From Deltaproteobacteria bacterium TL4 (GTDB lineage Bacteria; SAR324; NAC60-12), in contig JBBCAX010000126.1 in the NCBI GenBank assembly GCA_051382335.1, forward strand, positions 1 to 24,902: a DNA stretch of 24,902 nt. Direction: 5' to 3'. Positions 3,839 to 24,729 of this stretch are shown one piece after another. The notes under the pieces are model-generated. The model did no database searches. It was not told the DNA's origin and saw nothing but the letters and a program-made list of their open reading frames with translations. Each line of letters begins with the position of its first letter. Position 1 is the stretch's first letter. A program made the position numbers and the translations under genes.

Positions 3839-3883
3839 ACGTGTTCCGATAGGCATTTACCGATTGCTGACGGAACAAAATTA

Positions 3884-4043
3884 GGGGTTGGTCACATTTT
3901 CGGCCATGTGTCAAAAATTTGATCTTTGATGTTCCACCTGATTTGTGTTTTATCCCGTAGGGGCAGACCTGTGATCTGCCCGGGATCAGGGCGAACACAC
4001 AGGTTCGCCCCTACAATTTGTGGTCGAAAATATGACCAACCCC
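3884..4043. mobile_element. 160-bp MITE-like element with 23-bp terminal inverted repeats and an 8-bp target-site duplication
   Basis: Left end GGGGTTGGTCACATTTTCGGCCA (3884-3906) matches the reverse complement of 4021-4043, GGGGTTGGTCATATTTTCGACCA, at 21/23. Direct repeat CAAAATTA at 3876-3883 and 4044-4051. Confidence 0.85.
3957..4014. repeat. Inverted pair of GTAG-type REP sequences (REPIN-like doublet)
   Basis: GTAG-GGGCAGA-CCTGTGA-TCTGCCC at 3957-3981. The reverse complement of 3989-4014 is GTAG-GGGCGAAC-CTGTGT-GTTCGCCC. Confidence 0.8.
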
Positions 4044-4048
4044 CAAAA

Positions 4049-4803: not shown

Positions 4804-6300
4804 GTGTACCCTTTAACACTAAAGGCACAGGCGACAAGGATGTCGACTTTTGACTATAACTCATTGGAACAATTAAAAAAGAAATCCACGGAGATCAAGC
4901 TACTCAACCGGGACAGCTTACCCTTCATGATTGGATTTTTGCAGAAGGAATTTATCGCCGCCAGTCGGCATTCTATTCCTCAGTCCGAGTTAATTCCAGC
5001 ACTAGGCAATTATTTGTTCGATCTCAATGAGTATTACAGTGAGCAACGCTACACTCAAACCCCTAAAGACTATCTGGAAGACTGGTCTACTCCTGAAGCT
5101 CACATTTTAAGAAAATATTATCCTTCTAACGCGGATGAGGCGTGTTTTGATCTAACTCCTTCGACAGTGAGAGTGATTCAATTCATTGAGTCCCTGGAAA
5201 CCCATGATTTTGTGGGCGCGGAATCTCGTATGAAGAATATGCTTCACATGTTGCGGAGTTTGGCGAGAGACAGTGAGACAAATCCCGAGGTCTTGGTCCA
5301 GGATTACAAACAGCAAATTATGGAATTGGAACGAAAAATTGAGCAAATCGAAGTGGGCGATGTAGAACTGGTCGATTCTTATATGCTCCGTGGACAATTC
5401 TTTGAAATTCAGGATACCGCGAAAAATTTGCTGTACGATTTTCGGCAAGTTGGAGAGAACTTCCGAAAGCTGGATCAAAACATACGGGAACATTTTTCCT
5501 CTGATGAACGGAGTAAGGGGAAGATTCTGGATGATGTTTTTAGGGAACATGACCAAATACGGGAATCTGACCAGGGAAAAAGTTTCCGTGCCTTTTGGGA
5601 GTTCTTGATGTCTCCTCATCATCAAAACGAACTCAAAGCCCTTTTGGGCAAAGTGCTTAGCATTTCTGAGCTTCAGGAGTTAGAAAATGAAGCGTTCCTG
5701 GAAGGCTTTGCCGAAAACCTTTTAGATGCGGGGGAAAGTGTTTATAGCAGTTATAATCTCATTACAGAACAATTACGTCAGTATTTGGAAAGCCAGATCC
5801 ATGTAGAAAATCGAAGGATCATGGAATTGATTCATGATATTGAGAGGCAGGCTTTAGCGGTGAAAGATCTGGATCGGAGGAAACTGCCCGGTCTTAAGTT
5901 TCAAAGTCGCAAACCCAACGTAAGTTTTCCGATGTCAAAGATCCTTTTCACACATCCCAAAAGGCCGTTGATTGACGATAACCCCATTTATGCGGGGGCC
6001 TCCGAACTAAACCTTGCCGCGCTTTATCCGGAAGGCAGCGTTGACGAGAAGCGCTTGTTATCCAACATCAAAGGCGCGTTGACAGACAAAGTTTCAATAT
6101 CGATGCCCGATTTATTTCAATACTATCCGATCGTTGATGGCTTGGCCGAAGTTTTGACCTATTTTCGTTTCGCTGTTTATCGGGAAGTTCCCGCGACGGT
6201 GGTGAAGCATTCTTCTCAAATCATCAGTTGGAAACGTTCGGAAGATCAAGTCTGTGAGATACAATTACCTGAAGTATTTTTTCTAAGAAAAAAGGGGTGA
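4804..6300 (+). CDS. jetA: Wadjet JetA / MksF-like kleisin (DUF3375-like)
   Basis: YLEDW...LRKYYP...FDLTP, FVGAESR, DFRQVGENFRKLD, SDQGKSFRAFWEFLMSP, ENRRIMELIHDIE; first gene of the jetABC order. Start is GTG 4804 (AGGAGG at 4791-4796) or ATG 4840. Confidence 0.88.
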   Translation: MYPLTLKAQATRMSTFDYNSLEQLKKKSTEIKLLNRDSLPFMIGFLQKEFIAASRHSIPQSELIPALGNYLFDLNEYYSEQRYTQTPKDYLEDWSTPEAHILRKYYPSNADEACFDLTPSTVRVIQFIESLETHDFVGAESRMKNMLHMLRSLARDSETNPEVLVQDYKQQIMELERKIEQIEVGDVELVDSYMLRGQFFEIQDTAKNLLYDFRQVGENFRKLDQNIREHFSSDERSKGKILDDVFREHDQIRESDQGKSFRAFWEFLMSPHHQNELKALLGKVLSISELQELENEAFLEGFAENLLDAGESVYSSYNLITEQLRQYLESQIHVENRRIMELIHDIERQALAVKDLDRRKLPGLKFQSRKPNVSFPMSKILFTHPKRPLIDDNPIYAGASELNLAALYPEGSVDEKRLLSNIKGALTDKVSISMPDLFQYYPIVDGLAEVLTYFRFAVYREVPATVVKHSSQIISWKRSEDQVCEIQLPEVFFLRKKG

Positions 6301-6899
6301 ATATGAACCAGAACTCAAAAGAAGGAACAGTCAAAGTGCTTCTCTTCAGAGGAATTCTTTACAGGGATGAGGCACCGGAGGCATGGAACGATTTACTTCT
6401 ATTTCGTGGTAGAATCCTGGATTGGTTTTATCAGGTAGGATTGGAGGTGTTTGTCGATGAAGCCGAAGGTTATGCCTTTCTGAAGCAAAGAGAACGCTAT
6501 GCGGATGATGAAGTTCCGATGGATCTTCCACCGTTGATCATTCGACGGCCCCTCAGTCATGGCATGAGTCTGCTGTGTGTCTTACTTCATAAAAAGCTTG
6601 TGGAGCATGAAGCGCATCAAAGTGGGAGTTGTGTGATTCACAAAAAAGAGGTGGTTGAAATGATGAAAGTCTTCATGACGGATACCAAAAATGAGGCAAA
6701 AATCGTTGATGACGTGAATAGCAACATCAAAAACGCGGTAACCCTGTTGGGTTTTTTAAGACCACTCAAAGGCGAGTCGGATAAGTACGAAATAAGGAGA
6801 ATTATCAAAGCCTTTGTTAATGCGCAAAACCTGGCCGATTATCGGGAAGCGTTAATGGGAGTTAGTGAGCAAGAAGGAGAAAATCAATATGTCTGCTGA
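6297..6899 (+). CDS. jetB: Wadjet JetB / MksE-like KITE subunit (DUF4194-like)
   Basis: LFRGILYRD, GLEVFVDEAEGYAFLKQ, PPLIIRRPLS, LGFLRPL, YEIRRIIKAFV; GTGA overlap with the jetA stop. Confidence 0.9.
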   Translation: MNMNQNSKEGTVKVLLFRGILYRDEAPEAWNDLLLFRGRILDWFYQVGLEVFVDEAEGYAFLKQRERYADDEVPMDLPPLIIRRPLSHGMSLLCVLLHKKLVEHEAHQSGSCVIHKKEVVEMMKVFMTDTKNEAKIVDDVNSNIKNAVTLLGFLRPLKGESDKYEIRRIIKAFVNAQNLADYREALMGVSEQEGENQYVC

Positions 6900-9800
6900 A
6901 AATCAAACCAAACTTGCCAGTGGGTTTCGGCTCAATTGGATGGAAATTCGCAATTGGGGGACTTTTGACAAATACGTCTGGCGCATGACACCTGAGGGCG
7001 AAACCAGTCTCATGACCGGGGACAATGGTTGTGGCAAATCCACAATCGTCGATGCGATCGTGACGCTGCTGATCCCCCATCCGATGATTACCTTCAATAA
7101 AAGTTCCGGGGCAAAAAAACAAGATCGCACGATTTACTCCTACCTTCGGGGGGCCTATAAGAATGTGCAGGATGAAAATAACAAAGCGAAAGCCATTTTT
7201 TTACGAGATGACAACAGTTATTCCGTTTTGCTTGCGTGTTTTCAAAACAAAGTGTTGAACCAGACCATTACATTGGCACAGGTCTTTTGGCTGGAAAATC
7301 ACAAGTTGGTCCCTAAAAAATTGTTTATCGTTGCGCATCACCCGTTGACCGTGGAAAACGATTTCACCGGATTTGGTTCTGATATTCGTAATCTCAAGAA
7401 AAAACTTAAAGAGCAAAAGGGGGTCGAAGTCTTTGATAGTTTTGCTCAATATGGAAACTATTTCCGGAAACGTGTTGGTATCGATAATATTCAGGCGCTG
7501 GACCTGTTCCTGCAGATGGTTTCCATGAAAAAAGTAGGAGTTTTAACCAATTTCATCAGGGAACGGATGATTGAACGGGGGCATGTCGAGCCTCGCGTCA
7601 ATCAACTCTGTGAGAACTTTGAAAATTTAAGTCAGTCTCATGATGCCGTATTGCAGGCGGAGGCGCAATTGAAAATCCTGGAACCCCTGGTCGAAGAGGC
7701 CACACATTATCGAAGCCTTGGAGAGAAAAAACAGGAACTGGAACGAACTCAAGCGTCTTTAGACCAATACTTCGCCCGTTATGAAATACAAACGCTCAAT
7801 CAACAAATAGTGACTTTGAATTTTGAGATTGAGAATATGGAAAACAGTTTAAAAACACACTCCCAAGAAGAGCGGCGTTTGGAACATGACCGTTTGGATC
7901 TCAAGAAGAATATGGAGGACAGCGGCGGCGCGCGGATTGTGGTGTTGACACAGCAAATCAGCAATCTTCGGGAGTTGGTTGAAAAACGAAAACAGGAATA
8001 TGCGATCTATCAATCCCATGCCGAGGAAGTGGATCTTCCGCTTCCGGATTCCAATGAAGTGTTCCAGGGGAACCGGAGGGAACTGGTGGATATCCTCAAT
8101 GACTATGAAGTGGAGTTGAAGGGGATAGAAGAACGCCGCCTGGAGTTGGCCTTATCCGCGAAAACACTGATGAATACACACAAAGAACTCCAAACGGAAG
8201 TGGACTCTATCAAGCAGGGAAAAACGCAGATTCCCATGATCTTGCAAAAATTCAGAGAGCAATTGGCTGAGGCGTTACAATGTGCTGAAGATGAAATCCC
8301 CTACGCTGCCGAATTGCTTCAGGTTTGTCCTGAAGCACAGGAATGGGAAGGCGCGATTGAACGCTTGCTGCATGGTTTTGGAACAACGTTGCTGGTGCCG
8401 AATGGACTTTATCATGAGGTGAGAGATTATGTGAACTCCAATCGGATTCAAGTCAACATCAATGGCAGTATTCGGGGACTCCGCATTGTTTATCAATGCG
8501 CCGAAGAAAACATGAGCGATCAAGGTCAGGAACACTCACATCCCAGTGAGTTGATTACCAAAATTGAAATCAAGTCCGATCATCCTTTTAGGGGGTGGCT
8601 GGAAAAACAAATTAGAGAACGCTTTGATTATGTCTGCTGCGCCTCTCCACGAGATTTTGACAGCCATCGAAAAGCGTTGACCCGTGAAGGACAGATCAAA
8701 ACTTACCAACGACATGAAAAAGATGACCGACAAGGGTTATCCGATCGGAGTCAATTCATCCTGGGATGGAGTCCTCAGCACAAAGTGGCCTCAATGGAAG
8801 AAGACTTGAGAAAAGTGGAGAAAGAAGGACAGTTGATTGCGGCCAAAATCGCGGATACCAATACCCTCAAAAATTATTGTGAAAAGCAAAAAGATCACGC
8901 GAAAGCGCTGCAGGCGTTCAAACAATTTGAAAACCTTGATTTCTATAGCCTTGAAGAACAATTACAACAGGCTGTTGCGGAAAAGAAAAACATCGAATCC
9001 AGCTCGGATCTGCTTCGTACCTTTCAAGAACGTTCCAAACAATTGGATGATTCTATTTTTATACAAAGGCAATTGCGAGAGAATTTGATCCGTGAACATG
9101 CGGTAGTTTCTAATCGGCGCAAACATTATCTGGATCGGGTACAGCATCTGGAACAGGCGATTTTGAATGCCCTGGAAGCAGAAAAACGTGAATTTGTGAA
9201 ACTGGATGAAATTCTGAAAGAACAGTTTGGTGAAGCTGGAAATTCTTTGGATAATATTCCCGCGAAGAAGTTATTTCTGCAAGACTGGATTATGGGGCAA
9301 CTCAGTGAAACCAACAGGGAAATTAACCGCTTGGGGCACTCGATGATTAAGCGGATGTCTCAATTTGCGGCGCAATATCCTGCGGAAGTGCAAGATTTCG
9401 AAGCCAGTCTCGAAGCAATGGCGTATTGGGAAAAACTCTATTATCAACTGAAACGTGAAGATCTGCCGCGTCATAAAAATCGGTTTAAAGAATTGCTGAA
9501 TGAAGGCGCGATCAATGGTCTTGCGTTATTCAAACACCAATTGGAACGTGAAGAAGAAGACATCCGAAAGAAGATCGAGAAGATCAATGAGTCCCTCTGT
9601 CAAATTGACTATGATCTCGGAACCTACATCGCGTTGATCATTCATCCGATTCTTGACCCTGAGATTCGTGAGTTTCGCGCTGAGCTTAAAGGGTGCCTGG
9701 ATCAGGAAGAAGGGGATGAAGATTTGTATAATGAGGAAAAGTTTCTCAAAGTCAAAGCGTTGATAGAACGTTTCAAAGGAAGAGAAGGTCAAAGTGAGGA

Positions 9801-10341
9801 AGATCGTCGCTGGAGAGACAAAGTCATTGATGTTCGAAACTGGATGTCTTTTAATGCCAGTGAGCGTTGGCGTGAAACCGATGAAGAAAAAGAATTCTAC
9901 TCAGGTACGAGTACCAAATCCACAGGACAGCAGGAAAAACTGGCTTATACGGTTTTAGCCTCCGCGATTGCGTACCAGTTTGGCTTGGATTGGATCGATG
10001 GCAATGCCCGAGGTTTCCGATTTATTGTGATTGATGAGGCCTTTTCTGTGGGGTCTGATAAAAACACACGCTATGCCTTGGAACTCTTCAAAAAGCTTGG
10101 ACTTCAAGTGTTGATTGTGACGCCATTGCAAAAACTGCATGTGATTGAGCCTTATATTCAAAATGTCCATTTCATCTATAATGAAAATGGTGCCTTTTCT
10201 CAAATTGAAAACCTGCCGATTAAAACCTATCAGGACCAAAAGAAAAATTATCGTCAACAACCTGAAGAGGTGCAGCTTGTAGAGGATGACGAGCCTTTGC
10301 TGACGGAGGATGATCCTCTTGAAGAAGTAGAAAGCGCGTAA
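6889..10341 (+). CDS. jetC: Wadjet JetC / MksB-like SMC ATPase
   Basis: GFRLNWMEIRNWGTF, Walker A GDNGCGKST, long coiled coils, HEKDDR, signature region KSTGQQEKLAYTVLASAIAYQF, Walker B FIVIDEAF, VTPLQK. ATG 6889 has AGGAG at 6875-6879 (ORF track starts at 6865). Confidence 0.92.
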   Translation: MSAENQTKLASGFRLNWMEIRNWGTFDKYVWRMTPEGETSLMTGDNGCGKSTIVDAIVTLLIPHPMITFNKSSGAKKQDRTIYSYLRGAYKNVQDENNKAKAIFLRDDNSYSVLLACFQNKVLNQTITLAQVFWLENHKLVPKKLFIVAHHPLTVENDFTGFGSDIRNLKKKLKEQKGVEVFDSFAQYGNYFRKRVGIDNIQALDLFLQMVSMKKVGVLTNFIRERMIERGHVEPRVNQLCENFENLSQSHDAVLQAEAQLKILEPLVEEATHYRSLGEKKQELERTQASLDQYFARYEIQTLNQQIVTLNFEIENMENSLKTHSQEERRLEHDRLDLKKNMEDSGGARIVVLTQQISNLRELVEKRKQEYAIYQSHAEEVDLPLPDSNEVFQGNRRELVDILNDYEVELKGIEERRLELALSAKTLMNTHKELQTEVDSIKQGKTQIPMILQKFREQLAEALQCAEDEIPYAAELLQVCPEAQEWEGAIERLLHGFGTTLLVPNGLYHEVRDYVNSNRIQVNINGSIRGLRIVYQCAEENMSDQGQEHSHPSELITKIEIKSDHPFRGWLEKQIRERFDYVCCASPRDFDSHRKALTREGQIKTYQRHEKDDRQGLSDRSQFILGWSPQHKVASMEEDLRKVEKEGQLIAAKIADTNTLKNYCEKQKDHAKALQAFKQFENLDFYSLEEQLQQAVAEKKNIESSSDLLRTFQERSKQLDDSIFIQRQLRENLIREHAVVSNRRKHYLDRVQHLEQAILNALEAEKREFVKLDEILKEQFGEAGNSLDNIPAKKLFLQDWIMGQLSETNREINRLGHSMIKRMSQFAAQYPAEVQDFEASLEAMAYWEKLYYQLKREDLPRHKNRFKELLNEGAINGLALFKHQLEREEEDIRKKIEKINESLCQIDYDLGTYIALIIHPILDPEIREFRAELKGCLDQEEGDEDLYNEEKFLKVKALIERFKGREGQSEEDRRWRDKVIDVRNWMSFNASERWRETDEEKEFYSGTSTKSTGQQEKLAYTVLASAIAYQFGLDWIDGNARGFRFIVIDEAFSVGSDKNTRYALELFKKLGLQVLIVTPLQKLHVIEPYIQNVHFIYNENGAFSQIENLPIKTYQDQKKNYRQQPEEVQLVEDDEPLLTEDDPLEEVESA

Positions 10342-10420: not shown

Positions 10421-11413
10421 CTATTCATTTTTAACGAAAAAGAAAGCGCCATGTCCAAAGTGAGTTTGACGTCCGACATGGAAAATAGAGGCTAATTCCA
10501 GATAAGGTAATAGTTCGGGAAGAAGGCCTTCAAGGAAATAGGAAGCGCTACCCCCTTGACCTTCTGAAAAAGAATGAGAACTCTTAGGAGAAGGAATCAC
10601 CGTCGCCGCACAGGCCATTTCCAGGATTTTCAAAAAATCCGTCGTTTCTTCGGAAGAAAGGGAACTCCATGTTTTCTGAGGATCGTAACGTTTTCCATGA
10701 GTGATCTCGCTCCATCGTTCCAAAAGATCTTCCAGTATGAGACATAACACGTGCCGCGAGAGAGGAGCCTCTTCTCCCGTTAAGTGGGATACGGAATATC
10801 GAGGCAGGAAAGGTGTCTGCCATGAAAGCTTTTTGAGCTTTTTGAGACTGAAGGAGATTTCGCTTTCATTATTCCACTGCAAGGAATCGACGGACAGACG
10901 CATATTTAATTTTCCTTGCTCGACCAAAGGCTCCCATTGTCGTCCCTTTGCGATGTAAACAGCGTCGATATCAAAGCGTCCCCACAAGCTGCGTGGTTGT
11001 TTCCAGCGCGGGTCATTTGTATAACCCGCTTCTTCCATGGCTGGTAAAATAGTTTCAAGAAACACCGCATGATCCGCATAATCTCCAAATAGCTTAAGTT
11101 CCCAGACGAGGCATTCGCCTTCTCCAAAATGGCGTTGTTGGGAATGCGTCGAGATGACGGATGACAATGGCCACTCCAAGTCCGGGTCCTTTGTCAACGC
11201 TTCCGAAGCGTCGGACACATTTTGATAAGTCTGCCATCCTGCCACAAACTTTTTCCAACGTTTTGCTTCTTGAGATGAAAGGCGTTCAGCGATGAGGGAA
11301 CCTAGCGTTTTCGAGATTTCAGCATTCGGATGAAGCAGGCTTGCAAAAGAGTTATTCGTTTTCCACACTATCAGATAGCGAATCAACGGAATGGATTTGA
11401 AAGTATTCAACAT
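10421..11413 (-). CDS. cas6: Cas6-like RAMP endoribonuclease (divergent)
   Basis: C-terminal LLPYLELASIFHVGRQTHFGHGAF resembles the Cas6 G-rich loop; internal WELKLFG...LPAMEEAG...GRFDIDAV and LSWQTPF segments fit Cas6; last gene of a RAMP operon. Confidence 0.75.
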   Translation of the reverse strand: MLNTFKSIPLIRYLIVWKTNNSFASLLHPNAEISKTLGSLIAERLSSQEAKRWKKFVAGWQTYQNVSDASEALTKDPDLEWPLSSVISTHSQQRHFGEGECLVWELKLFGDYADHAVFLETILPAMEEAGYTNDPRWKQPRSLWGRFDIDAVYIAKGRQWEPLVEQGKLNMRLSVDSLQWNNESEISFSLKKLKKLSWQTPFLPRYSVSHLTGEEAPLSRHVLCLILEDLLERWSEITHGKRYDPQKTWSSLSSEETTDFLKILEMACAATVIPSPKSSHSFSEGQGGSASYFLEGLLPELLPYLELASIFHVGRQTHFGHGAFFFVKNE

Positions 11414-12263
11414 AAGGAAAAAGCTCGTATAAGAGATGAATGCGGTGTCGTGGCCATTGTTTCATGCGCCAGGATTCAAGCATGTCTTTCACTCGCAGAT
11501 CAACGCTCCCCAAAAAACGTCCCCAATAAAAAGAGTCTTGTTGCGTTTTCGAACTCATTAGTAATTTGTAGAGTTCTTGCTGTTCGTTGGGGCGAAGTAG
11601 CGCGCGAAACAATTCCGCCATTTCCAACAAGTTCAAGAATTCAGAAACCTCAAAAAAATGACGTTTTGCGCTCCCTTTCAAATATTCTAGAATATAACGA
11701 TAGGGGTTGGGATAGAAAAACAATTGGAGATTATGGCTTTTCTGTTGCAGTCGTTGTGGAATCGCTATTCTCAAAAAATCGCCCATATGAATGTCGAGAC
11801 TGTTCCCTATCGACGGAAACACGTACAACTGCCCTTGAACGTCGAGGCCGTGAGCAAGGAGAAAATTTTGCAACCATTGCTTGAGTTGTCGTTGTTGCAA
11901 CGCGACTACAAAGTGAGAGTCGTCTAACACACAGTTGAGAAAAGACGACGCTGCCGATGCGTCCGTTTTTCGCAAATTCCAAGGGATCTCATTTAAGACC
12001 CCCCAAACGAAAACCGCTTGATGAGATCGCTTGTGGTGTCGAGGGGAGCATTGATGTATAAACAGGCAAGCGGGACAATATTTTTTTTTAGGAGCAGGAG
12101 CGTAAATCCCACAGCGCTGACAAGGTACGGAAAGCGCGGAGGGAGGGGAACCAAGCTCGAGATCGTTGTCAACGACCTCTGGCCTTTCCGTCAACAAGGA
12201 GATCGTCGACAATAACTCGGTCCCGTTTTTACTCAAACGCAGCCAATCAAATTTTTTCAGCAT
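11352..12263 (-). CDS. Zn-finger protein, putative highly reduced Cas10-like large subunit
   Basis: C48-x2-C51...C63-x2-C66 (CQRCG...YCPAC), beta-strand AVFVWG, NCVLDDSHFVVAL resembling a decayed GGDD hairpin, helical C-terminus. Overlaps both neighbours. The CDS is solid; the Cas10 call is inference. Confidence 0.5.
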   Translation of the reverse strand: MLKKFDWLRLSKNGTELLSTISLLTERPEVVDNDLELGSPPSALSVPCQRCGIYAPAPKKKYCPACLFIHQCSPRHHKRSHQAVFVWGVLNEIPWNLRKTDASAASSFLNCVLDDSHFVVALQQRQLKQWLQNFLLAHGLDVQGQLYVFPSIGNSLDIHMGDFLRIAIPQRLQQKSHNLQLFFYPNPYRYILEYLKGSAKRHFFEVSEFLNLLEMAELFRALLRPNEQQELYKLLMSSKTQQDSFYWGRFLGSVDLRVKDMLESWRMKQWPRHRIHLLYELFPYVEYFQIHSVDSLSDSVENE

Positions 12264-15200
12264 TCAACACTCTTATCAGCGCATCGCGATGTTGAACAAC
12301 CGAAGTATTTGTCCATTCGGCAAGACGCAACAGTTGCGATGTGCTCTTAGCAGAATTCGAGTAGCGTGCCTCCCAATCAACAAAAGCACTTTCTGGCAAG
12401 AGCTTCATTTTCAAACTTCCGAAACCCAGAGCACGGCATCGTCCCATTTTGTGCGCCAAACCTTCTTCCAGTTGCACACACCAGATCAGCCGTTGCAACT
12501 CCGTTTTTTCGAGATTCCAAAAGCGAATGGCAAAGCGCGCTTTACTTCCCGGCAACATTGCCCGGAAATAAACGGCTTGCGATGAATCAGGCTCGAAACT
12601 TTCGAGCTGTGTCACTGGCGGAGCCAAGGGCGTATGGGGGAAAACGCGCCATCTTTTATCGATCTGCACCATTTGTCTTTTATTCTGTCCTTCTTGCCAA
12701 CCGCCTTTTGTGTAATTCCAGGTTCCATAAGGATAGGGCGCTTGAAACCAGGCAGACGACACTTCGAAAAACACACCGAAATCAAAGGCTAAGCGACCGC
12801 TGAGGGACTGATTGCTGCCTTTGCCCACCCAACCGAACAAACTATCGACGGGATTTAAATGGCTAAGTTCTCGACTTTCGGTTTTAGCATCGGAGGCAAT
12901 TTGATATAAGTGGCGAATTGCGCCTTTGAGACTGAGACTGGGAATCGCATAGGGACGGTTTTCGGTTTTCAAGTCGGCGCGATGAGAGGACAAAGAAAAG
13001 AAATCCCAACCGTTTACCGGGCGTTCGTTGACCATCGCAGAAAACGAAGGTTGACCGCTTTCGGAAATATTGAACGGCGTCAATACTTCGATTTCTCCTT
13101 GCAACATCCCGCAGTAGCCTCCAAACGAGCGATGAGAGATGAAGCCTTCACGAGCGCGAGGAGGCGGTAAGTCTGCTTTTTTCTCTTGGGTAAACAACGG
13201 AGGCAGGGCGTTCAACGTTTCGCGACTTTGAGACGAATCAAGCGTCACTTTTTTCCAGAGGCCTTCCTGCGAGAAGTCACATTTTCCAAATAACGATTGG
13301 CTCACGGCGTTGTGAGTCCGCATCAACCAATCTAATCGAACCAATTCTCCTCGGATCCAACCGAAGCCGTTGCTCCGTTCCCCGCCTAACGGAATGTCTC
13401 GTCGTTGTAAATCGTCCAATAGATGCTTGAACAAAGACAAGGCTTCCAGATCCTGTTGGGTCACATCTTGGAGATCCAATTGAAAACGAAACGACAATTC
13501 CTCGCCAAAGGCAAAGAGGTAATCGCGTTTGGAACCATCGGCTGGTCGTCCTGTTCCAGGATCGACTTTGATTCCGTCCATGGCGCAGAAATCTTTTTCT
13601 GACAACTCCGAACGATTCAAGTAAGCGTCCGAAAATAAAATCAAGCCACGTCGCCCCTGAATACCAAAGAGTCGGGCGAGCAAATCGCTCGTTTTTTTGG
13701 ACTCGCCCCAAAAAGTTTTGAGCAGTTGAGAAGCCCGTTTTCGAAAGGCGCCCTTGATGGTGCTTCCGGGAATATAGATTTCCCAGGATTCTTCCTTGTT
13801 CGACTGTGTCCAGGATAACATGCGCATCGGAATCGTATCGTAAGGTTTGCCATATTGTTTCGATTGGCTAGGATCGTTCAACCCTCCCGAGCGAAAATCC
13901 ATATTATGCGGTTGGGCTAATTCCTGATGCGTGCGATTACGATAGTTTTTCAGGTAGGCGATAAAATTTTGATCGTTCGTAATGCTTTTTTGGAGATTTG
14001 TCCGGTTTGCGATGTGAGGAAACCGCACTCGATTGTGTGCGTCGAGAAATTCTTTCCAGGCTGCCAACTTTAAGCCCTGAGGCGCATTATGGGAATTGCC
14101 CCATTGATCTTCGTCAATTTCCCCTCTGAAAATCATTTCCTTGATTTGCAAGTGATCGGAACGGTTGCTCAATTCCACTTCAACCCACGCGTCGCTCTGC
14201 AATAATTTTTCATTGCGGTCGATTTGCCGATCCAGATCCGGTAGGGCTCGTTTGCATTCTCGCTCTACAATGCGTTGCACGGCTATTTCGTCAGCAATGA
14301 CCGAGGCTAATTCTTCTTCAGCACTTTTGACAAAGCCCAGGTTTGAGGCGATTTCCGTCCACAGGGCTCGATTCAATTGCAAAACGGTTTGGTTTTGTTT
14401 GGTCAACTCTTCGAAGATCCGTTTGTTTTTTTTCGCATTGTCTGCGCCTAAGGCCTCTGAAAGAGCACCTTCCGCCTCCTCTTTGGTGACAAAGGCTTGA
14501 TCGATTAAGGGTTGAATCAGATCCAAGATCTTCTTGGAAAGCGGATATTTCCCTTTTGAGAGTTTGGCGATGTTCTTAGCGGACAAGATCCAGCTTTCCT
14601 TTTCTTGTGTGGCGCCCTTCAGCAAAGAAGCGGTCACCGCTTTGGGAAGCGCGTTCGCCAACTTTTTTTTCCAATCGCTAATGGACAAAATGGGACCGCC
14701 GATCCCCATCGCCAACCGTTCGCGAACGGTGAGGGGCAAGGATTGCATCATTTCGATCAACACACGTCCTTCTACCGTCAGCATCGTCGGCATATTCTCA
14801 TCCAATTTTCCCCAGTTCCATCCGACCAGGATCGGGTTAGCCAAACCAAACTGGAGCGAAAGTGTCAAGTGATTGGCCCGCATCGAATCATCAGGAATAG
14901 CGTCGTCGTTCGGCTGGAAAGGCAAATCCATTTCGAGGTGACATTTTCCCAACCCTCGACTTTTTCCCGCACCAAACCAAAAACGTCCGGCTTTCAATTC
15001 CGACAGGAGATAGTAGAGGCACGTTTGGTTAGCTCCCGATTTCAAAATTCTTTCGTTGACATCAAGCGTCAACTCAAAGGCTGAATTGCGTAAGATCGTT
15101 TCCATCTTATAATTGGCGTTGGCTTCGGCAGCCCACCGATCTTCATCCAGTTTAATCCCCATCCGCAAATCAAAAAAATGAGCGTTGGGGTAATGTTTTT

Positions 15201-15651
15201 CCATAAGTTTACACGTCACTTGATTGATCAGATCGGCTGGCATCCGTTGAGAGTACAACCGTTGCCACAATTGGGGTAGCAAGCCTGTGTTCTTCCCGTC
15301 CTTCGACGTACCAATGAAGGCGTCCATCAGCGATTGCGCCGTTCCTTGGATTTCTCCCGCCAGCGAAACTAAGCGTTGCTTGCCGTCTCCGTCTCGCGTA
15401 AACAAGGTTTTTCTAGCGTTCCCCCGGTAGATAGGCGATTCGGAAAACAGTTTTCCTCGTAGTAACATAAGTGCCTCGTTAAGTTTTTGTATTGTGAAAA
15501 TCATAGAGTTGGGATGAGGAATATTCCGACCTTTGTCAATTATTTTTTGTTCCCATTTTACTTCCGACTTTGGTGGAATCAAGGTGCAAGGCAGATCAAT
15601 GGGTTTCTTGAGCCTTGTTCCTAAAATTCGTAAGTAAAACGGATCTCTCAT
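12247..15651 (-). CDS. Multidomain RAMP protein with three fused Cas7-like domains (type III-like effector backbone)
   Basis: Domain 1 (aa ~62-240): LRGKLFSESPIYRG, RMGIKLD, FGAGKSRGLG. Domain 2 (aa ~262-770): NPILVG, IYIPGSTIKGAFR, RLFG...GLILFSDA, DGIKVDPGTG, LGGERSNGFG. Domain 3 (aa ~845-1085): GMLQGEIEVLTPF, YAIPSLSLKGAIR, SLFGWV...GRLAF, FAIRFWNL, KMGRCRALGFGS. Confidence 0.88.
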   Translation of the reverse strand: MRDPFYLRILGTRLKKPIDLPCTLIPPKSEVKWEQKIIDKGRNIPHPNSMIFTIQKLNEALMLLRGKLFSESPIYRGNARKTLFTRDGDGKQRLVSLAGEIQGTAQSLMDAFIGTSKDGKNTGLLPQLWQRLYSQRMPADLINQVTCKLMEKHYPNAHFFDLRMGIKLDEDRWAAEANANYKMETILRNSAFELTLDVNERILKSGANQTCLYYLLSELKAGRFWFGAGKSRGLGKCHLEMDLPFQPNDDAIPDDSMRANHLTLSLQFGLANPILVGWNWGKLDENMPTMLTVEGRVLIEMMQSLPLTVRERLAMGIGGPILSISDWKKKLANALPKAVTASLLKGATQEKESWILSAKNIAKLSKGKYPLSKKILDLIQPLIDQAFVTKEEAEGALSEALGADNAKKNKRIFEELTKQNQTVLQLNRALWTEIASNLGFVKSAEEELASVIADEIAVQRIVERECKRALPDLDRQIDRNEKLLQSDAWVEVELSNRSDHLQIKEMIFRGEIDEDQWGNSHNAPQGLKLAAWKEFLDAHNRVRFPHIANRTNLQKSITNDQNFIAYLKNYRNRTHQELAQPHNMDFRSGGLNDPSQSKQYGKPYDTIPMRMLSWTQSNKEESWEIYIPGSTIKGAFRKRASQLLKTFWGESKKTSDLLARLFGIQGRRGLILFSDAYLNRSELSEKDFCAMDGIKVDPGTGRPADGSKRDYLFAFGEELSFRFQLDLQDVTQQDLEALSLFKHLLDDLQRRDIPLGGERSNGFGWIRGELVRLDWLMRTHNAVSQSLFGKCDFSQEGLWKKVTLDSSQSRETLNALPPLFTQEKKADLPPPRAREGFISHRSFGGYCGMLQGEIEVLTPFNISESGQPSFSAMVNERPVNGWDFFSLSSHRADLKTENRPYAIPSLSLKGAIRHLYQIASDAKTESRELSHLNPVDSLFGWVGKGSNQSLSGRLAFDFGVFFEVSSAWFQAPYPYGTWNYTKGGWQEGQNKRQMVQIDKRWRVFPHTPLAPPVTQLESFEPDSSQAVYFRAMLPGSKARFAIRFWNLEKTELQRLIWCVQLEEGLAHKMGRCRALGFGSLKMKLLPESAFVDWEARYSNSAKSTSQLLRLAEWTNTSVVQHRDALIRVLNAEKI

Positions 15652-15818
15652 TTTGAAAGGAAACTATTAGAGTTTAGGCGAATATTCATCACCCCACCAG
15701 AGAGTGTTTCAGATTCAGAAAAACATTTTAAATAAATAAGCGAACCATGAGTAATAACAAGTCAAAAAAGCATGGAGTAAATAAACAGACGCACCCTATC
15801 CCCTTATCCTTTTTTACA

Positions 15819-15847
15819 TTGCAATCTTACTCCCCATTGGCTATACA
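15819..15847 (+). promoter_or_regulatory. Candidate sigma70-type promoter for the chemosensory operon
   Basis: TTGCAA (15819-15824), 17-nt spacer, TATACA (15842-15847); imperfect -10. Confidence 0.3.
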
Positions 15848-15914
15848 GATTTAAGCCCATTATTTGTTGGGGGAGAAATTCTTTCAAACCAGTTCGGCAA
15901 TTTCAAGGTTTTTT

Positions 15915-18074
15915 ATGAAGACGTTCAACCAAATCAAAATAACAACAAAAGTTACTGGGGGTTTTGTCATTATTATCCTTTTGATGGTACTTTCATCTAT
16001 ACACCGCATTCACTCCAGTCTCAACGATGCCGCTCATGCCAAAGAAATCAATGAAAACCTGCTACCTCAAGCTCTTACCTTCATTGGCTTAAGAATGGAT
16101 GTGGTCCAGATTCAACAATGGTTGACGGATATTGCCGCGACTCAAGCACAGGGAGGAATGGATGCCGGGTATGGGCAGGCTGAACAATATTACCAGGAAG
16201 CCCATGCTAAAATAGCGAAATTAATGGAGACTCATAGACAGGACAAGGAGATTACCAAGTATTTGAAAAGCCTAAAAAGGGATTTAGACAGTTATTATGA
16301 AATGGGTAAGGTCATGGCCAAAGCCTATATTGAGGGCGGGCCGGGCGCTGGAAACACGGCCATGGCAAAGTTTGATCCTTTGGCGCAAAAAATCACTTCA
16401 AGTTTAAGTAACTTTGTTGGAGAGTATAACGCGAAATTGACTCATTCTTCTTCAGAGGTTGAGGCTTCCGCCAACTTTTCAGTTAAGGCGGGACTTCTTT
16501 CATCGATAGCCATTTTTATTCTCAGCGCCTTGATCGCGTTTATGATTTCTCGGAACATTAGCCGTTTAATCAACAAGTTGGTTCAAAAAATAAGAGAGAT
16601 TATCGATGGTGAAATTAATTTAACTAAAAGCTTCGAGGTGAACAGTTATGCGAATTGCTCCGATATTCGTGGATGCCATAACCAGGCCTGTTCCAGTTTC
16701 GGAAAGGAGGAAGATTGCTGGTCTAAAGTGGGCAGCATGCAAAAAGAAAAAAACAAAATTAAATGTCCACGTGTGTTGAAAGGAAACATCCTCAATTGTT
16801 CCGATTGTCAAGTGTTTCAAATGGCGGAAGTGAATGAAATCGCCTCCATTTCGATTTGGCTCAATGCGTTTATTACTCAAGTCAAGCAAGTCGTTGAGGT
16901 TGTAAAGAGTTCAGCCGATCATCAGTCTTTTGCCACGAAGGCGTTGGCTGATTCTTCTCTGGAAATCTCAGCCAGCACCAAGAACATCCAGCAACGGATT
17001 TCCGGTATTTCTTCGGCCTCCCATCAAGTCAGTTCCAGTATTCAGAAAATGACCTCCTCTTCCGAGTTTGTCGCGTCGAACATTAATACCGTAGCAGTCG
17101 CTGTGGAACAACTGAACACCAACATCACAACCATTGCCGGAGCAACCGAGGAATCTTCAGTCAATATGGTGGAAATCAGCCAGAATACGAGTCGTATTTC
17201 TGTAGATATTGAAAAATTAGCGAATGTGATTGAAGGCATGTCGAAGAAATTGGCAGAAATCAGTCGGAATACCCAGGAAGCGATGAGTATTTCCACGGAT
17301 GCCAATCAAACAGCTCAGGTGACCTTGAATACGATGACCCTGCTTGGAGAGACGGCTAATAAAATTGGGAAAATCGTAAAATTGATTGACAATATCGCTT
17401 CTCAAACTAATATGCTGGCACTCAATGCGACTATTGAAGCGGCAAGTGCGGGAGATGCCGGCAAAGGTTTTGCTGTGGTCGCCTCAGAGGTTAAGGATTT
17501 GGCGCAACAAACGGCTGACGCGAATAACGAAATCGCGCAACAAATCGAATTGATCCAGAAACAAACCACGGAGGCGTTAAACCATAGCAGGAAAATCAAT
17601 GACCTCACCACCCGTGTGGCGGAAATTAATCGCTCCACCAATAAAACGATAGACGAACAGAGCAAATCGTCCGCGGAAATTTCGCGATCTGTCGATTCCA
17701 TTGCCAATGCCAGTAAAGAAACAGCCTTGAATGTGGATGAAGCCAATCTGGGAATGAAGGAAATTGCGCGTTCTATCGCGGAAGCCTCGCAAGTCGCTCA
17801 TGATACGTCCCAAAGAGTCGCTCAAAACGCGGGAAGTATGAAAGAAATCGCCAGAGCTTCTTCAGAGTCCGCGCTTGGGGTTCAAGAGGTCAACGCGAAT
17901 CTTCAGGAAATCCAAAGCGCGATTGGAGGCATGGATGAAGGCGTTTTGCTCATTACTCAAAACGCAATGACTTTGAAAGAAATGTCTGAAAAATTGCGAG
18001 AGATAACCCAGTCCTTCATCACAGATAAAAAAACAAAAGCGAGCACTACCAAATCGTTAATGAAGCTAACATAA
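15915..18074 (+). CDS. Methyl-accepting chemotaxis protein (2 TM, periplasmic helical sensor, HAMP with Cys-rich insert, long signalling domain)
   Basis: [37 protein letters not shown] hairpin tip; two TM segments; sensor motif [18 protein letters not shown] 15915 is preferred over TTG 15864. Confidence 0.95.
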
Positions 18075-23766: not shown

Positions 23767-23767
23767 T

Positions 23768-24726
23768 AGACATCTTTCCAAAATAAAGCCTGGATTTTAG
23801 CGAGTTCACGGGTATCCTCCTCTTTTACATAATTTTCAGTATTTCAAATGTATTGTAAGGAGGACCTATGAGCTACTTTAATAAATTGAGAACCCAGAAT
23901 CCCGATCAATTTAGACGAGAAACGGGGATTCCTTTGAAAAAATTTAAAAAACTGCGCAAAGCCGTCACTAATCACCTGACTGCGGCACGCCAAAATAATC
24001 CTTTACAACAGAGAGGGTGCAAGTCAGAAATATCTTTAGAGGATAAGTTGTTGCTCACCCTCTTTTACCTGCGTCATTACCAAACCTTTTTCATGTTGGG
24101 GAAACAGTTTGGCGTCAGTAAATCCTATGCCTGTAAAATTTTTCATCACTATAGTGATATTCTTGTTAAAGTTCAACCCTTGAAATCTCGTAAAACACTC
24201 ATAGAAGAAAAAGATGCCATAGTCCTTGATGTGACTGAAACTCCTATAGAACGCCCCAAAAAAGGACAAAAAGAATTTTACTCCGGAAAAAAGAAACGTC
24301 ATACGATCAAAGCCCAGTTGGTGGTCAATCTGACGACTTTAGTCATTTTGTCGGTCTTTTGTGAAAAAGGAACCGTTCATGATTTTCAAATTCTAAAAAA
24401 CAGTCGCTCCGTTTTCAATCCGGAGGCTCCAAAACTGGCTGATTCAGGTTATCAGGAAATCCACAAACTTTATAAAAACACACAGACTCCCATCAAAAAG
24501 AAAAAAGGAATTCCGTTAACCGAAGAAGAAAAACAATATAATCGGGAGTTGGCTCGCAAACGTATTGTCATTGAGCATATCAACCGACGCTGTAAAATCT
24601 TTCGTATTGTTAAAGAAACTTACAGAGGAAAACATAAAAACTATGGAAAAATTTGGAACATTATTGCTGGATTGGTAAATCTTCGCTATGCCGCATGATT
24701 TCAGGGTTTATTTAGGAAAGATGTCT
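23768..24726 (+). mobile_element. IS5-family insertion sequence (ISL2-group-like), complete
   Basis: Left end AGACATCTTTCCAAAATAAAGCCTG (23768-23792) matches the reverse complement of 24702-24726, AGACATCTTTCCTAAATAAACCCTG, at 23/25. AAT flanks both sides (23765-23767, 24727-24729). Confidence 0.88.
23868..24698 (+). CDS. IS5-family DDE transposase
   Basis: N-terminal HTH (LLLTLFYLRHY...FGVSKS); DDE residues in VLDVTE, LADSGY and RIVIEH; IERPKKGQKEFYSGKKKRHTIK; RBS AAGGAGG upstream. Confidence 0.93.
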   Translation: MSYFNKLRTQNPDQFRRETGIPLKKFKKLRKAVTNHLTAARQNNPLQQRGCKSEISLEDKLLLTLFYLRHYQTFFMLGKQFGVSKSYACKIFHHYSDILVKVQPLKSRKTLIEEKDAIVLDVTETPIERPKKGQKEFYSGKKKRHTIKAQLVVNLTTLVILSVFCEKGTVHDFQILKNSRSVFNPEAPKLADSGYQEIHKLYKNTQTPIKKKKGIPLTEEEKQYNRELARKRIVIEHINRRCKIFRIVKETYRGKHKNYGKIWNIIAGLVNLRYAA

Positions 24727-24729
24727 AAT

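Follow-up and report, generated by a model that had tools for sequence, protein, structure and literature searches.

A stand-alone subtype III-I CRISPR effector module in Deltaproteobacteria bacterium TL4, with Cas6i predicted to dock on Cas10i

The Locus and Its Assignment to Subtype III-I

We analyzed a 24,902-nucleotide (nt) stretch of Deltaproteobacteria bacterium TL4 (GenBank assembly GCA_051382335.1, contig JBBCAX010000126.1, forward strand), hereafter the window, which is a whole contig (G000:C126) and carries a three-gene type III CRISPR operon flanked by about 10 kb and about 9 kb of unrelated genes. A first-pass annotation, made from the letters of the sequence, had read the operon as a fusion of three Cas7 domains (Cas7x3) with a mini-Cas10-like and a Cas6-like protein, and had named the recently proposed subtype III-I as a lead. 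This lead was borne out, as all three proteins passed the curated NCBIfam models for III-I: Cas7-11i with 1624 bits against a cutoff of 800 (NF049957), Cas10i with 318.1 against 175 (NF049958), and Cas6i with 240.6 against 160 (NF049959). The III-E model NF041225 gave Cas7-11i 55 bits (cutoff 700), and Pfam CRISPR_Cas6 gave the third gene 33.6 (cutoff 25). We regard it as virtually certain that the three genes form a stand-alone subtype III-I effector module, with the following features.

12247–15468, minus strand: cas7-11i, 1073 amino acids (aa); NF049957 match over profile positions 1–1076; three Cas7 domains, with a helical insertion interrupting the second
14929–15468, minus strand: Cas7 domain 1 (residues 1–180); Lys20 (15409–15411) aligned at the Csm3 catalytic Asp position
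13864–14796, minus strand: mostly helical insertion of ~310 aa (residues ~225–535) in Cas7 domain 2, from DSSP of the model
13189–13863, minus strand: Cas7 domain 2, C-terminal part; Asp544 (13837–13839); Pfam RAMPs, 68.7 bits
12250–13152, minus strand: Cas7 domain 3 (residues 773–1073), TIGR03986-like; Asp822 (13003–13005); Z 15.7 to 8s9t_E
11352–12263, minus strand: cas10i, 303 aa; Cas10 of reduced size bearing a CxxC...CxxC zinc finger; NF049958
12123–12155, minus strand: Cas10i residues 37–47, predicted Cas6i docking segment, from the complex model and conservation; P40 invariant
10421–11413, minus strand: cas6i, 330 aa; Cas6 fold with a C-terminal Gly-rich loop; NF049959

The geometry given by the first-pass annotation was reproduced: three overlapping minus-strand open reading frames (ORFs) at 12247–15651, 11352–12263, and 10421–11413, with overlaps of 17 and 62 nt; a 79-nt gap to jetC, whose stop lies at 10341; and about 260 nt to the ATG of the divergent methyl-accepting chemotaxis protein (MCP) gene (263 nt, counted from 15651 to 15915). 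The large gene, however, almost surely begins at 15468 instead of 15651, because the start of the family model, the lengths of the homologues, and the upstream site all agree. The NCBIfam model begins only at residue 62 of the long ORF; the 120 listed homologues are 1069–1102 aa long, and the database entry for the window protein has 1073 aa; and among the candidate starts only the ATG at 15468 has a GAGG site upstream. With this correction, the intergenic gap is about 446 nt.

The absence of other CRISPR components from the window was likewise confirmed. There was no cas1, cas2, cas5, csx19, CARF, csx29, or csx30 among its ORFs (16 main ORFs covered by Pfam and 10 by PADLOC/NCBIfam) and no CRISPR array on the contig. 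For the three repeats of the arrays found elsewhere in this genome, the best matches in the window had 14/36, 15/35, and 9/28 mismatches, and neither a local array nor a solo repeat was found by array search and repeat matching.

Subtype III-I was defined in PMC12669027 (Makarova et al. 2025) by an extremely diverged Cas10, in which the N-terminal polymerase domain is missing and the catalytic motif disrupted, and a fusion of three Cas7 domains plus Cas11; it was reported from more than 160 genomes, with Desulfonema magnum as exemplar, and its RNA cleavage is a prediction in the sections of that paper drawn on here. Its passages on III-I are silent on the lack of arrays, the role of Cas6i, and the Lys in domain 1, and the sections used of PMC13294483 (2026) mention the subtype a single time. 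No experimental study of III-I was found in the literature searched. The window locus adds a member to this already named subtype.

Comparison with Other Type III Systems

The window operon shares with other III-I modules the same three protein families, all above cutoff, the fusion of three Cas7 domains with a central helical region, the shrunken Cas10 without GGDD, and the gene order of 56 of 57 testable loci. It differs in its divergence (best relative 56%, in a search that scored 8000 candidates and yielded at least 490 proteins at E ≤ 1e-50) and in belonging to a phylum in which the 87 other genomes have no III-I module. The fused Cas7 backbone is common to III-I and to III-E Cas7-11e, or gRAMP (Craspase), but Cas7-11i, with only three fused Cas7 domains, is missing the processing Cas7 at the N terminus of Cas7-11e as well as its large C-terminal insertion; moreover, the operon has Cas10i and Cas6i, with no csx29 or csx30 in the window, and does not fall within III-E. 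The III-D2 system (Cas6, Cas10, Cas7-5, and Cas7x3; PMC13294483) resembles the window in combining a Cas7x3 fusion with separate Cas6 and Cas10 proteins. As described in the sections of that paper used here, III-D2 also has Cas7-5, and its Cas10, with two Palm domains, produces SAM-AMP for a CorA effector, whereas the window has no Cas5, no GGDD/GGDE-type polymerase, and no effector, which places it outside III-D and III-D2.

Anatomy of Cas7-11i and Its Candidate Cut Sites

The AlphaFold2 model of Cas7-11i was of moderate quality (predicted local distance difference test, pLDDT, 68.2; predicted template modeling score, pTM, 0.55). A Foldseek search with the large protein, which had been proposed at the outset, ranked Cas7-11 chains at the top, and residues 1–1072 of the model aligned to residues 404–1552 of Cas7-11 7wah (Z 16.5, root-mean-square deviation [rmsd] 4.9, 520 residues aligned). 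According to the relevant part of PMC12669027, the III-I fusion corresponds to Cas7.2–7.4 of Cas7-11, and the fold matches agree; the last domain (model residues 773–1072) matched 8s9t_E. A figure legend of the same paper labels the central helical region "putative Cas11." Taken as part of the whole-protein model, the insertion at residues ~225–535 had only generic helical-bundle matches, at residues ~420–523 with Z up to 7.6; no Cas11 chain was among the structure matches listed, and there was no usable Atlas match.

The Asp of the Csm3 D-x4-R motif is the catalytic residue. When domain 2 without its insertion was aligned by hhalign to a Csm3-like protein of this genome, D544 fell on this Asp (E 1.6e-6); domain 1, aligned to the Csm3-like proteins of this genome, has K20 at the Asp position (E 1.2e-4, with a probability of only 28%). 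No hhalign match was obtained between domain slices and the Csm3 on contig C45, or between domain 3 and any Csm3, and profile searches of the Protein Data Bank (PDB) never covered the catalytic loop of domain 1. Across 107 sequences, position 20 was Lys in 105, Asn in one, Arg in one, and never Asp, while Asp544 was Asp in all 107 and Asp822 in 106. Each Cas7 domain has a near-invariant Asp (D26, D544, D631, D822), all of them kept in this copy; in domain 1, the invariant D26 belongs to the subsequent "RD." By these alignments, D544 alone appears clearly at the canonical catalytic position, and the spacing of motifs makes Asp822 a second candidate active site. Because domain 1 has Lys in place of the catalytic Asp, Cas7-11i probably has one or two cut sites, three being unlikely. 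Cleavage by domain 1 is thus improbable, a reading with a weak alignment behind it. The sections used of PMC13294483 offer a precedent in III-D2, where Cas7.2 and Cas7.3 lack the catalytic Asp.

Cas10i, Cas6i, and Their Predicted Docking

The zinc-finger cysteines of Cas10i (C48, C51, C63, C66) were invariant in 48 aligned rows, and none of the 48 had a GGDD motif. Profiles of Cas10i and Cas6i searched by sequence against the PDB found no Cas10 or Cas6; that sequence searches miss Cas10 for Cas10i is also stated in PMC12669027, in the part on this subtype. Structure was more informative for Cas6i, whose model (pLDDT 79.9) had Streptococcus thermophilus Cas6 as its best fold match (Z 12.3, rmsd 3.9, 217 aligned), with lower scores for Cas5-type chains (Z 6.7 for 8s9t_A 242–595 and 5.5 for 3w2v_B). 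Fold and sequence thus favor Cas6, and we rejected the third gene as a Cas5 by descent. In an alignment to the III-A Cas6 of this genome (E about 4e-5), Cas6i keeps the GS.I motif, but the GSxxRG...GH helix is without its Arg and His, and no His is conserved in the region of helix 1. The Gly loop is kept, and the invariant H115, H312, H318, and R233 could form another active site.

We modeled Cas7 domain 1 (residues 1–225) and Cas10i (residues 1–290) together with Cas6i as the partner, following the suggestion of the first-pass annotation that the proteins be modeled as a complex. Cas6i scored 0.77, compared with 0.00 for the best of three controls, and replacing Cas10i brought the score down to 0.00. 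Of 157 solved complexes, 116 attain this mark, as do 2 of 215 mismatched pairs, counts that apply here only roughly, as this run used our own alignments and three chains. The runs shared at least 75% of contacts, with a partner pLDDT of at least 76. All confident contacts lay between Cas10i and Cas6i, where Cas10i residues 37–47, just before the zinc finger, would meet G157, W160, E105, L305, and A308–I310 of Cas6i. No contact between Cas6i and Cas7 domain 1 was named in the model, which holds no evidence against one. The 40 interface columns of Cas6i were more conserved than the rest of the protein (0.73 vs. 0.62, p = 0.009).

In III-D2, the Cas10 Linker contacts Cas5 (PMC13294483, in its section 11), and the Cas10i segment before the zinc finger may by analogy be the counterpart of this Linker. 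Cas5 is absent from III-I loci, so Cas6i may occupy the place of the missing subunit on Cas10i. On the strength of the complex model, we lean toward Cas6i being an integral subunit of the complex.

Related Loci Keep the Gene Order and Lack Arrays

The first genome scan, made with a single protein, gave one locus only; a wider collection comprised 81 related loci (the best 80 of 323 metagenome relatives plus L001, some of them near-duplicates). In the 57 loci whose downstream sequence spans 2.1 kb or more, Cas10i follows in all 57 and Cas6i in 56, the sole locus without a Cas6i match after Cas10i being L036 (L036:7214-8116); Cas6i was also found in 40 of 41 III-I genomes. Pairwise identities of the three proteins correlated at 0.91–0.93 over 36 loci, as expected of any co-inherited operon. 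Broken copies also occur: Cas7-11i is interrupted by ~1.5 kb in L051 (L051:10001-14772) and split into two frames in G129 (G129:C13:26004-29202).

None of the 81 loci had an array of at least three repeats in 622 kb of flanking sequence, of which 21 loci contributed at least 2 kb and 12 loci at least 5 kb on both sides; when applied to 24 control loci, the array finder picked up repeats in 21. No cas gene recurred among 588 flanking ORFs. A conserved accessory gene was sought and rejected, since the largest neighbor clusters cover only 8 of 82 loci and are host-like, as judged by sequence and not by family scan. Among viral contigs, 46 pattern matches included no III-I relative. Of the 88 genomes from this phylum, one carries the module, as do 41 of 401 in the class of L001. 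The first-pass annotation had allowed that this copy might be an orphan of a known system that normally sits beside arrays and cas1/2. Its homologues do belong to a described subtype, but they too sit without arrays or cas1/2, so the copy is not the orphan of an array-linked system.

We also looked for a conserved RNA beside the operon and found none among the matches listed for 104 upstream and 59 downstream regions. Similarity among these regions was limited to promoter- and ribosome-binding-site-like sequence, the end of the Cas6 gene, and neighbor genes of close kin. The window flanks had no BLAST match, among those listed, to the 103 other upstream regions. The intergenic leader had no Rfam match at E ≤ 1 and no repeat, and its folding was unremarkable (z −1.48). 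Promoter and terminator counts were at chance level. In one clade (L008, L015, L016, L022, L023, L097), short imperfect ~11-nt GACCA-rich tandem repeats lie ~100 nt before cas7-11i, with the promoter on one side and the ribosome-binding site on the other; they are absent from the window.

Arrays Elsewhere in the Genome

The search of the whole genome for arrays, which the first-pass annotation had called for, found III-A, III-B, and I-E arrays on other contigs, their subtypes being read from gene order and motifs rather than family scans. The III-A locus lies on C45, and its array extends onto C90 with 188 repeats in one run; a cmr-type (III-B) locus on C237 has arrays of 31 and 17 repeats; and an I-E-type locus on C353 has 12. 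Because arrays exist elsewhere in this genome, it is plausible that guides are available in trans to the III-I module. The repeats of the III-A and III-B arrays are for the most part unlike each other, yet their final 10 bases are identical (orientation inferred), so the two systems would yield a single CRISPR RNA (crRNA) pool with a common 8-nt tag.

Two further observations concern the CRISPR content of this genome. A second array-less type III module at C160:1015-9149 has a Cas10-like gene, several Csm3-like RAMPs, and a TIGR03986-like gene; it looks III-D-like by features other than a family scan, and no array was found on C160. One of 168 extracted spacers matches the organism's own genome, over 34 nt at 97% (G000:C77:38819-38852), possibly a prophage or a self-target.

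State of This Copy and Its Neighbors

The window copy departs from the family consensus more than every aligned relative in all three proteins. At columns conserved in at least 90% of rows, it departs at 63 of 463 in Cas7-11i (others 0–32, n = 49), 14 of 67 in Cas10i (others 0–12, n = 47), and 13 of 74 in Cas6i (others 0–9, n = 43), the consensus being built from the other rows, which favors them. In Cas6i, it carries K93Q and has lost the PG.W.G.Q hairpin at 284–291. A frameshift behind the odd Cas6i C terminus was considered and rejected, as no compensated frameshift was found in cas6i. The terminal branch of this copy is the longest of 107 (0.51, followed by 0.46 and 0.44). The three frames, the four aspartates of Cas7-11i named above, the four cysteines, and the docking residues (P40 of Cas10i; G157, W160, E105, L305, and A308 of Cas6i) are intact. 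This copy may be drifting. The GC content at third codon positions of cas7-11i (0.525, at the 95th percentile of the genome) is in line with horizontal transfer.

The operon is neighbored by the following features outside the module.

15469–15914, no strand assigned: intergenic leader common to the operon and the divergent MCP gene; GAGG ribosome-binding site at 15474–15477
4804–10341, plus strand: jetA-jetB-jetC (Wadjet), context outside the module; PADLOC JetA1/B1/C1, without jetD

No JetD_C or DUF3322 match was found in this genome. In the relative G045, jetD lies directly 3′ of jetC; here, the III-I operon stands head-on to jetABC at the expected place of jetD, which it may have displaced. 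Because the neighbor clusters of other III-I loci contain no Wadjet genes, the adjacency looks like a shared insertion site. Two mobile-element-like features lie farther out: an apparently complete insertion sequence near the contig end (DDE transposase at 23868–24698, with 26-nt inverted repeats at 23767–23792 and 24702–24727) and a 26-nt inverted repeat pair at 3881–4046 (88% complementary, 114 nt apart) between a PMT-family gene and a nitroreductase gene, possibly a miniature inverted-repeat transposable element (MITE) or repetitive extragenic palindromic (REP)-like element.

Proposed Mechanism

In the mechanism that we propose, the III-I module would have been gained by horizontal transfer. 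Cas7-11i would form the backbone on a guide RNA and pair the guide with a target RNA, cutting at Asp544, perhaps at Asp822, and probably not in domain 1. Cas10i, which has no HD domain, would act as a scaffold without producing a second messenger, leaving RNA binding or knock-down as the only output. Cas6i would bind Cas10i before the zinc finger, which makes the complex probably a trimer in the modeled arrangement, with Cas6i in the place of Cas5. The guides would be crRNAs borrowed from arrays elsewhere, the weakest step of the scheme. We give about even chances to the reading that a complex of Cas7-11i, Cas10i, and Cas6i binds or cuts RNA without signaling, using crRNAs supplied in trans.

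Competing Explanations

Several observations weigh against this reading, and part of them point to a domesticated, CRISPR-independent ribonucleoprotein (RNP), in which III-I would carry a host RNA other than crRNA and serve RNA regulation or turnover, with Cas6i structural rather than a nuclease. Sequence conservation in the family is very high by the standards of an immune effector (median identity 66% among 107), none of the 81 loci has an array in its flanks, no defense or cas gene recurs among the neighbors, and none of the relatives came from viral contigs. When 41 III-I genomes in the class of L001 were compared with 74 chosen from the 360 without III-I, neither cas1 (26/41 vs. 49/74) nor the array pattern (24/41 vs. 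47/74, single matches of which may be chance) was enriched, and genomes with neither marker were 8 of 41 and 13 of 74, respectively. Five of these 8 III-I genomes (G177, G185, G247, G321, and G392) showed no other cas gene or array in searches for cas1, cas2, PF09704 Cas5, Csc2, other RAMPs, and other PF10040 Cas6 and with three array patterns, including the I-E type and a broader one. The missing Arg and His of the Cas6i helix would also suit a structural role. However, the assemblies are incomplete, each marker misses ~35–40% of genomes in both groups, and ~14% would show neither marker even if all had arrays, which leaves the comparison little power; marker dropout could explain most such blanks, and cas1 or the array pattern is present in 33 of the 41 III-I genomes. 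Domestication also sits poorly with the lack of a conserved noncoding element up- or downstream of the operon and with a Cas6i that retains the Cas6 fold, the Gly loop, and its invariant His and Arg residues, and a lack of arrays is equally usual elsewhere, applying to most III-B, III-C, III-E, and III-F loci according to a legend in PMC12669027. We consider domestication possible, though on the unlikely side. A more specific form, an array-independent three-subunit machine in which Cas6 replaces Cas5, signaling is gone, one or two RNase sites are present, and a host RNA other than crRNA is the guide, we hold to be more doubtful still.

Other objections bear on the composition of the complex. 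The Cas10i side of the modeled interface was not significantly more conserved than the rest (0.71 vs. 0.65, p = 0.14), and the pass of the model may reflect its likeness to solved Cas10–Cas5 complexes. Cas6i might instead be only a free processing enzyme, with the effector being the Cas7-11i–Cas10i dimer of the published AlphaFold3 model, which, as presented in PMC12669027, contains Cas7-11i, Cas10i, and crRNA without Cas6 (interface pTM, ipTM, 0.75). The NCBIfam name of Cas6i, pre-crRNA processing endoribonuclease, fits this view, as does L036, which has no Cas6i match and keeps the P40 segment of Cas10i; in the part of PMC4041471 used here, Cas6 did not copurify with type III complexes and was not a stable subunit in Sulfolobus or Pyrococcus. 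Yet the complex model passes with a defined Cas10i–Cas6i interface on invariant residues, and Cas6i stands beside nearly every copy despite having no local array to process, and we judge the free-enzyme explanation less likely than not. On cleavage, PMC12669027, in its treatment of III-I, assigns cleavage sites to all three Cas7 domains from their conserved Asp, contrary to our one or two. Finally, the family may be functional while this copy has come under relaxed selection after transfer to a foreign phylum and is defunct or only partly working. The excess departures in all three proteins, K93Q and the lost hairpin of Cas6i among them, the longest terminal branch, the single occurrence among 88 genomes of the phylum, and the neighboring Wadjet without jetD would fit such decay. 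Against it stand the open frames, the lack of a compensated frameshift in cas6i, the retained candidate catalytic Asp, Cys, and docking residues, a consensus that favors the other rows, and other branches nearly as long, and we regard decay as quite unlikely.

Implications

Subtype III-I is a compact, signaling-free candidate for RNA targeting, and the interest lies in the subtype, through its guide source and the predicted Cas6i docking, more than in this locus. For bench work, a typical member would be preferable to this diverged copy. For the family, our models and alignments newly predict that Cas6i docks on Cas10i residues 37–47 in the Cas5 slot and that the first Cas7 domain is probably noncutting. 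If the docking is true, III-I would be the first type III effector with an integral Cas6, as far as the literature searched shows. If the array-independent reading is true, a type III complex would have been turned to a nonimmune job; should the bound RNA prove not to be crRNA, III-I would represent a rare case in which a type III complex was domesticated.

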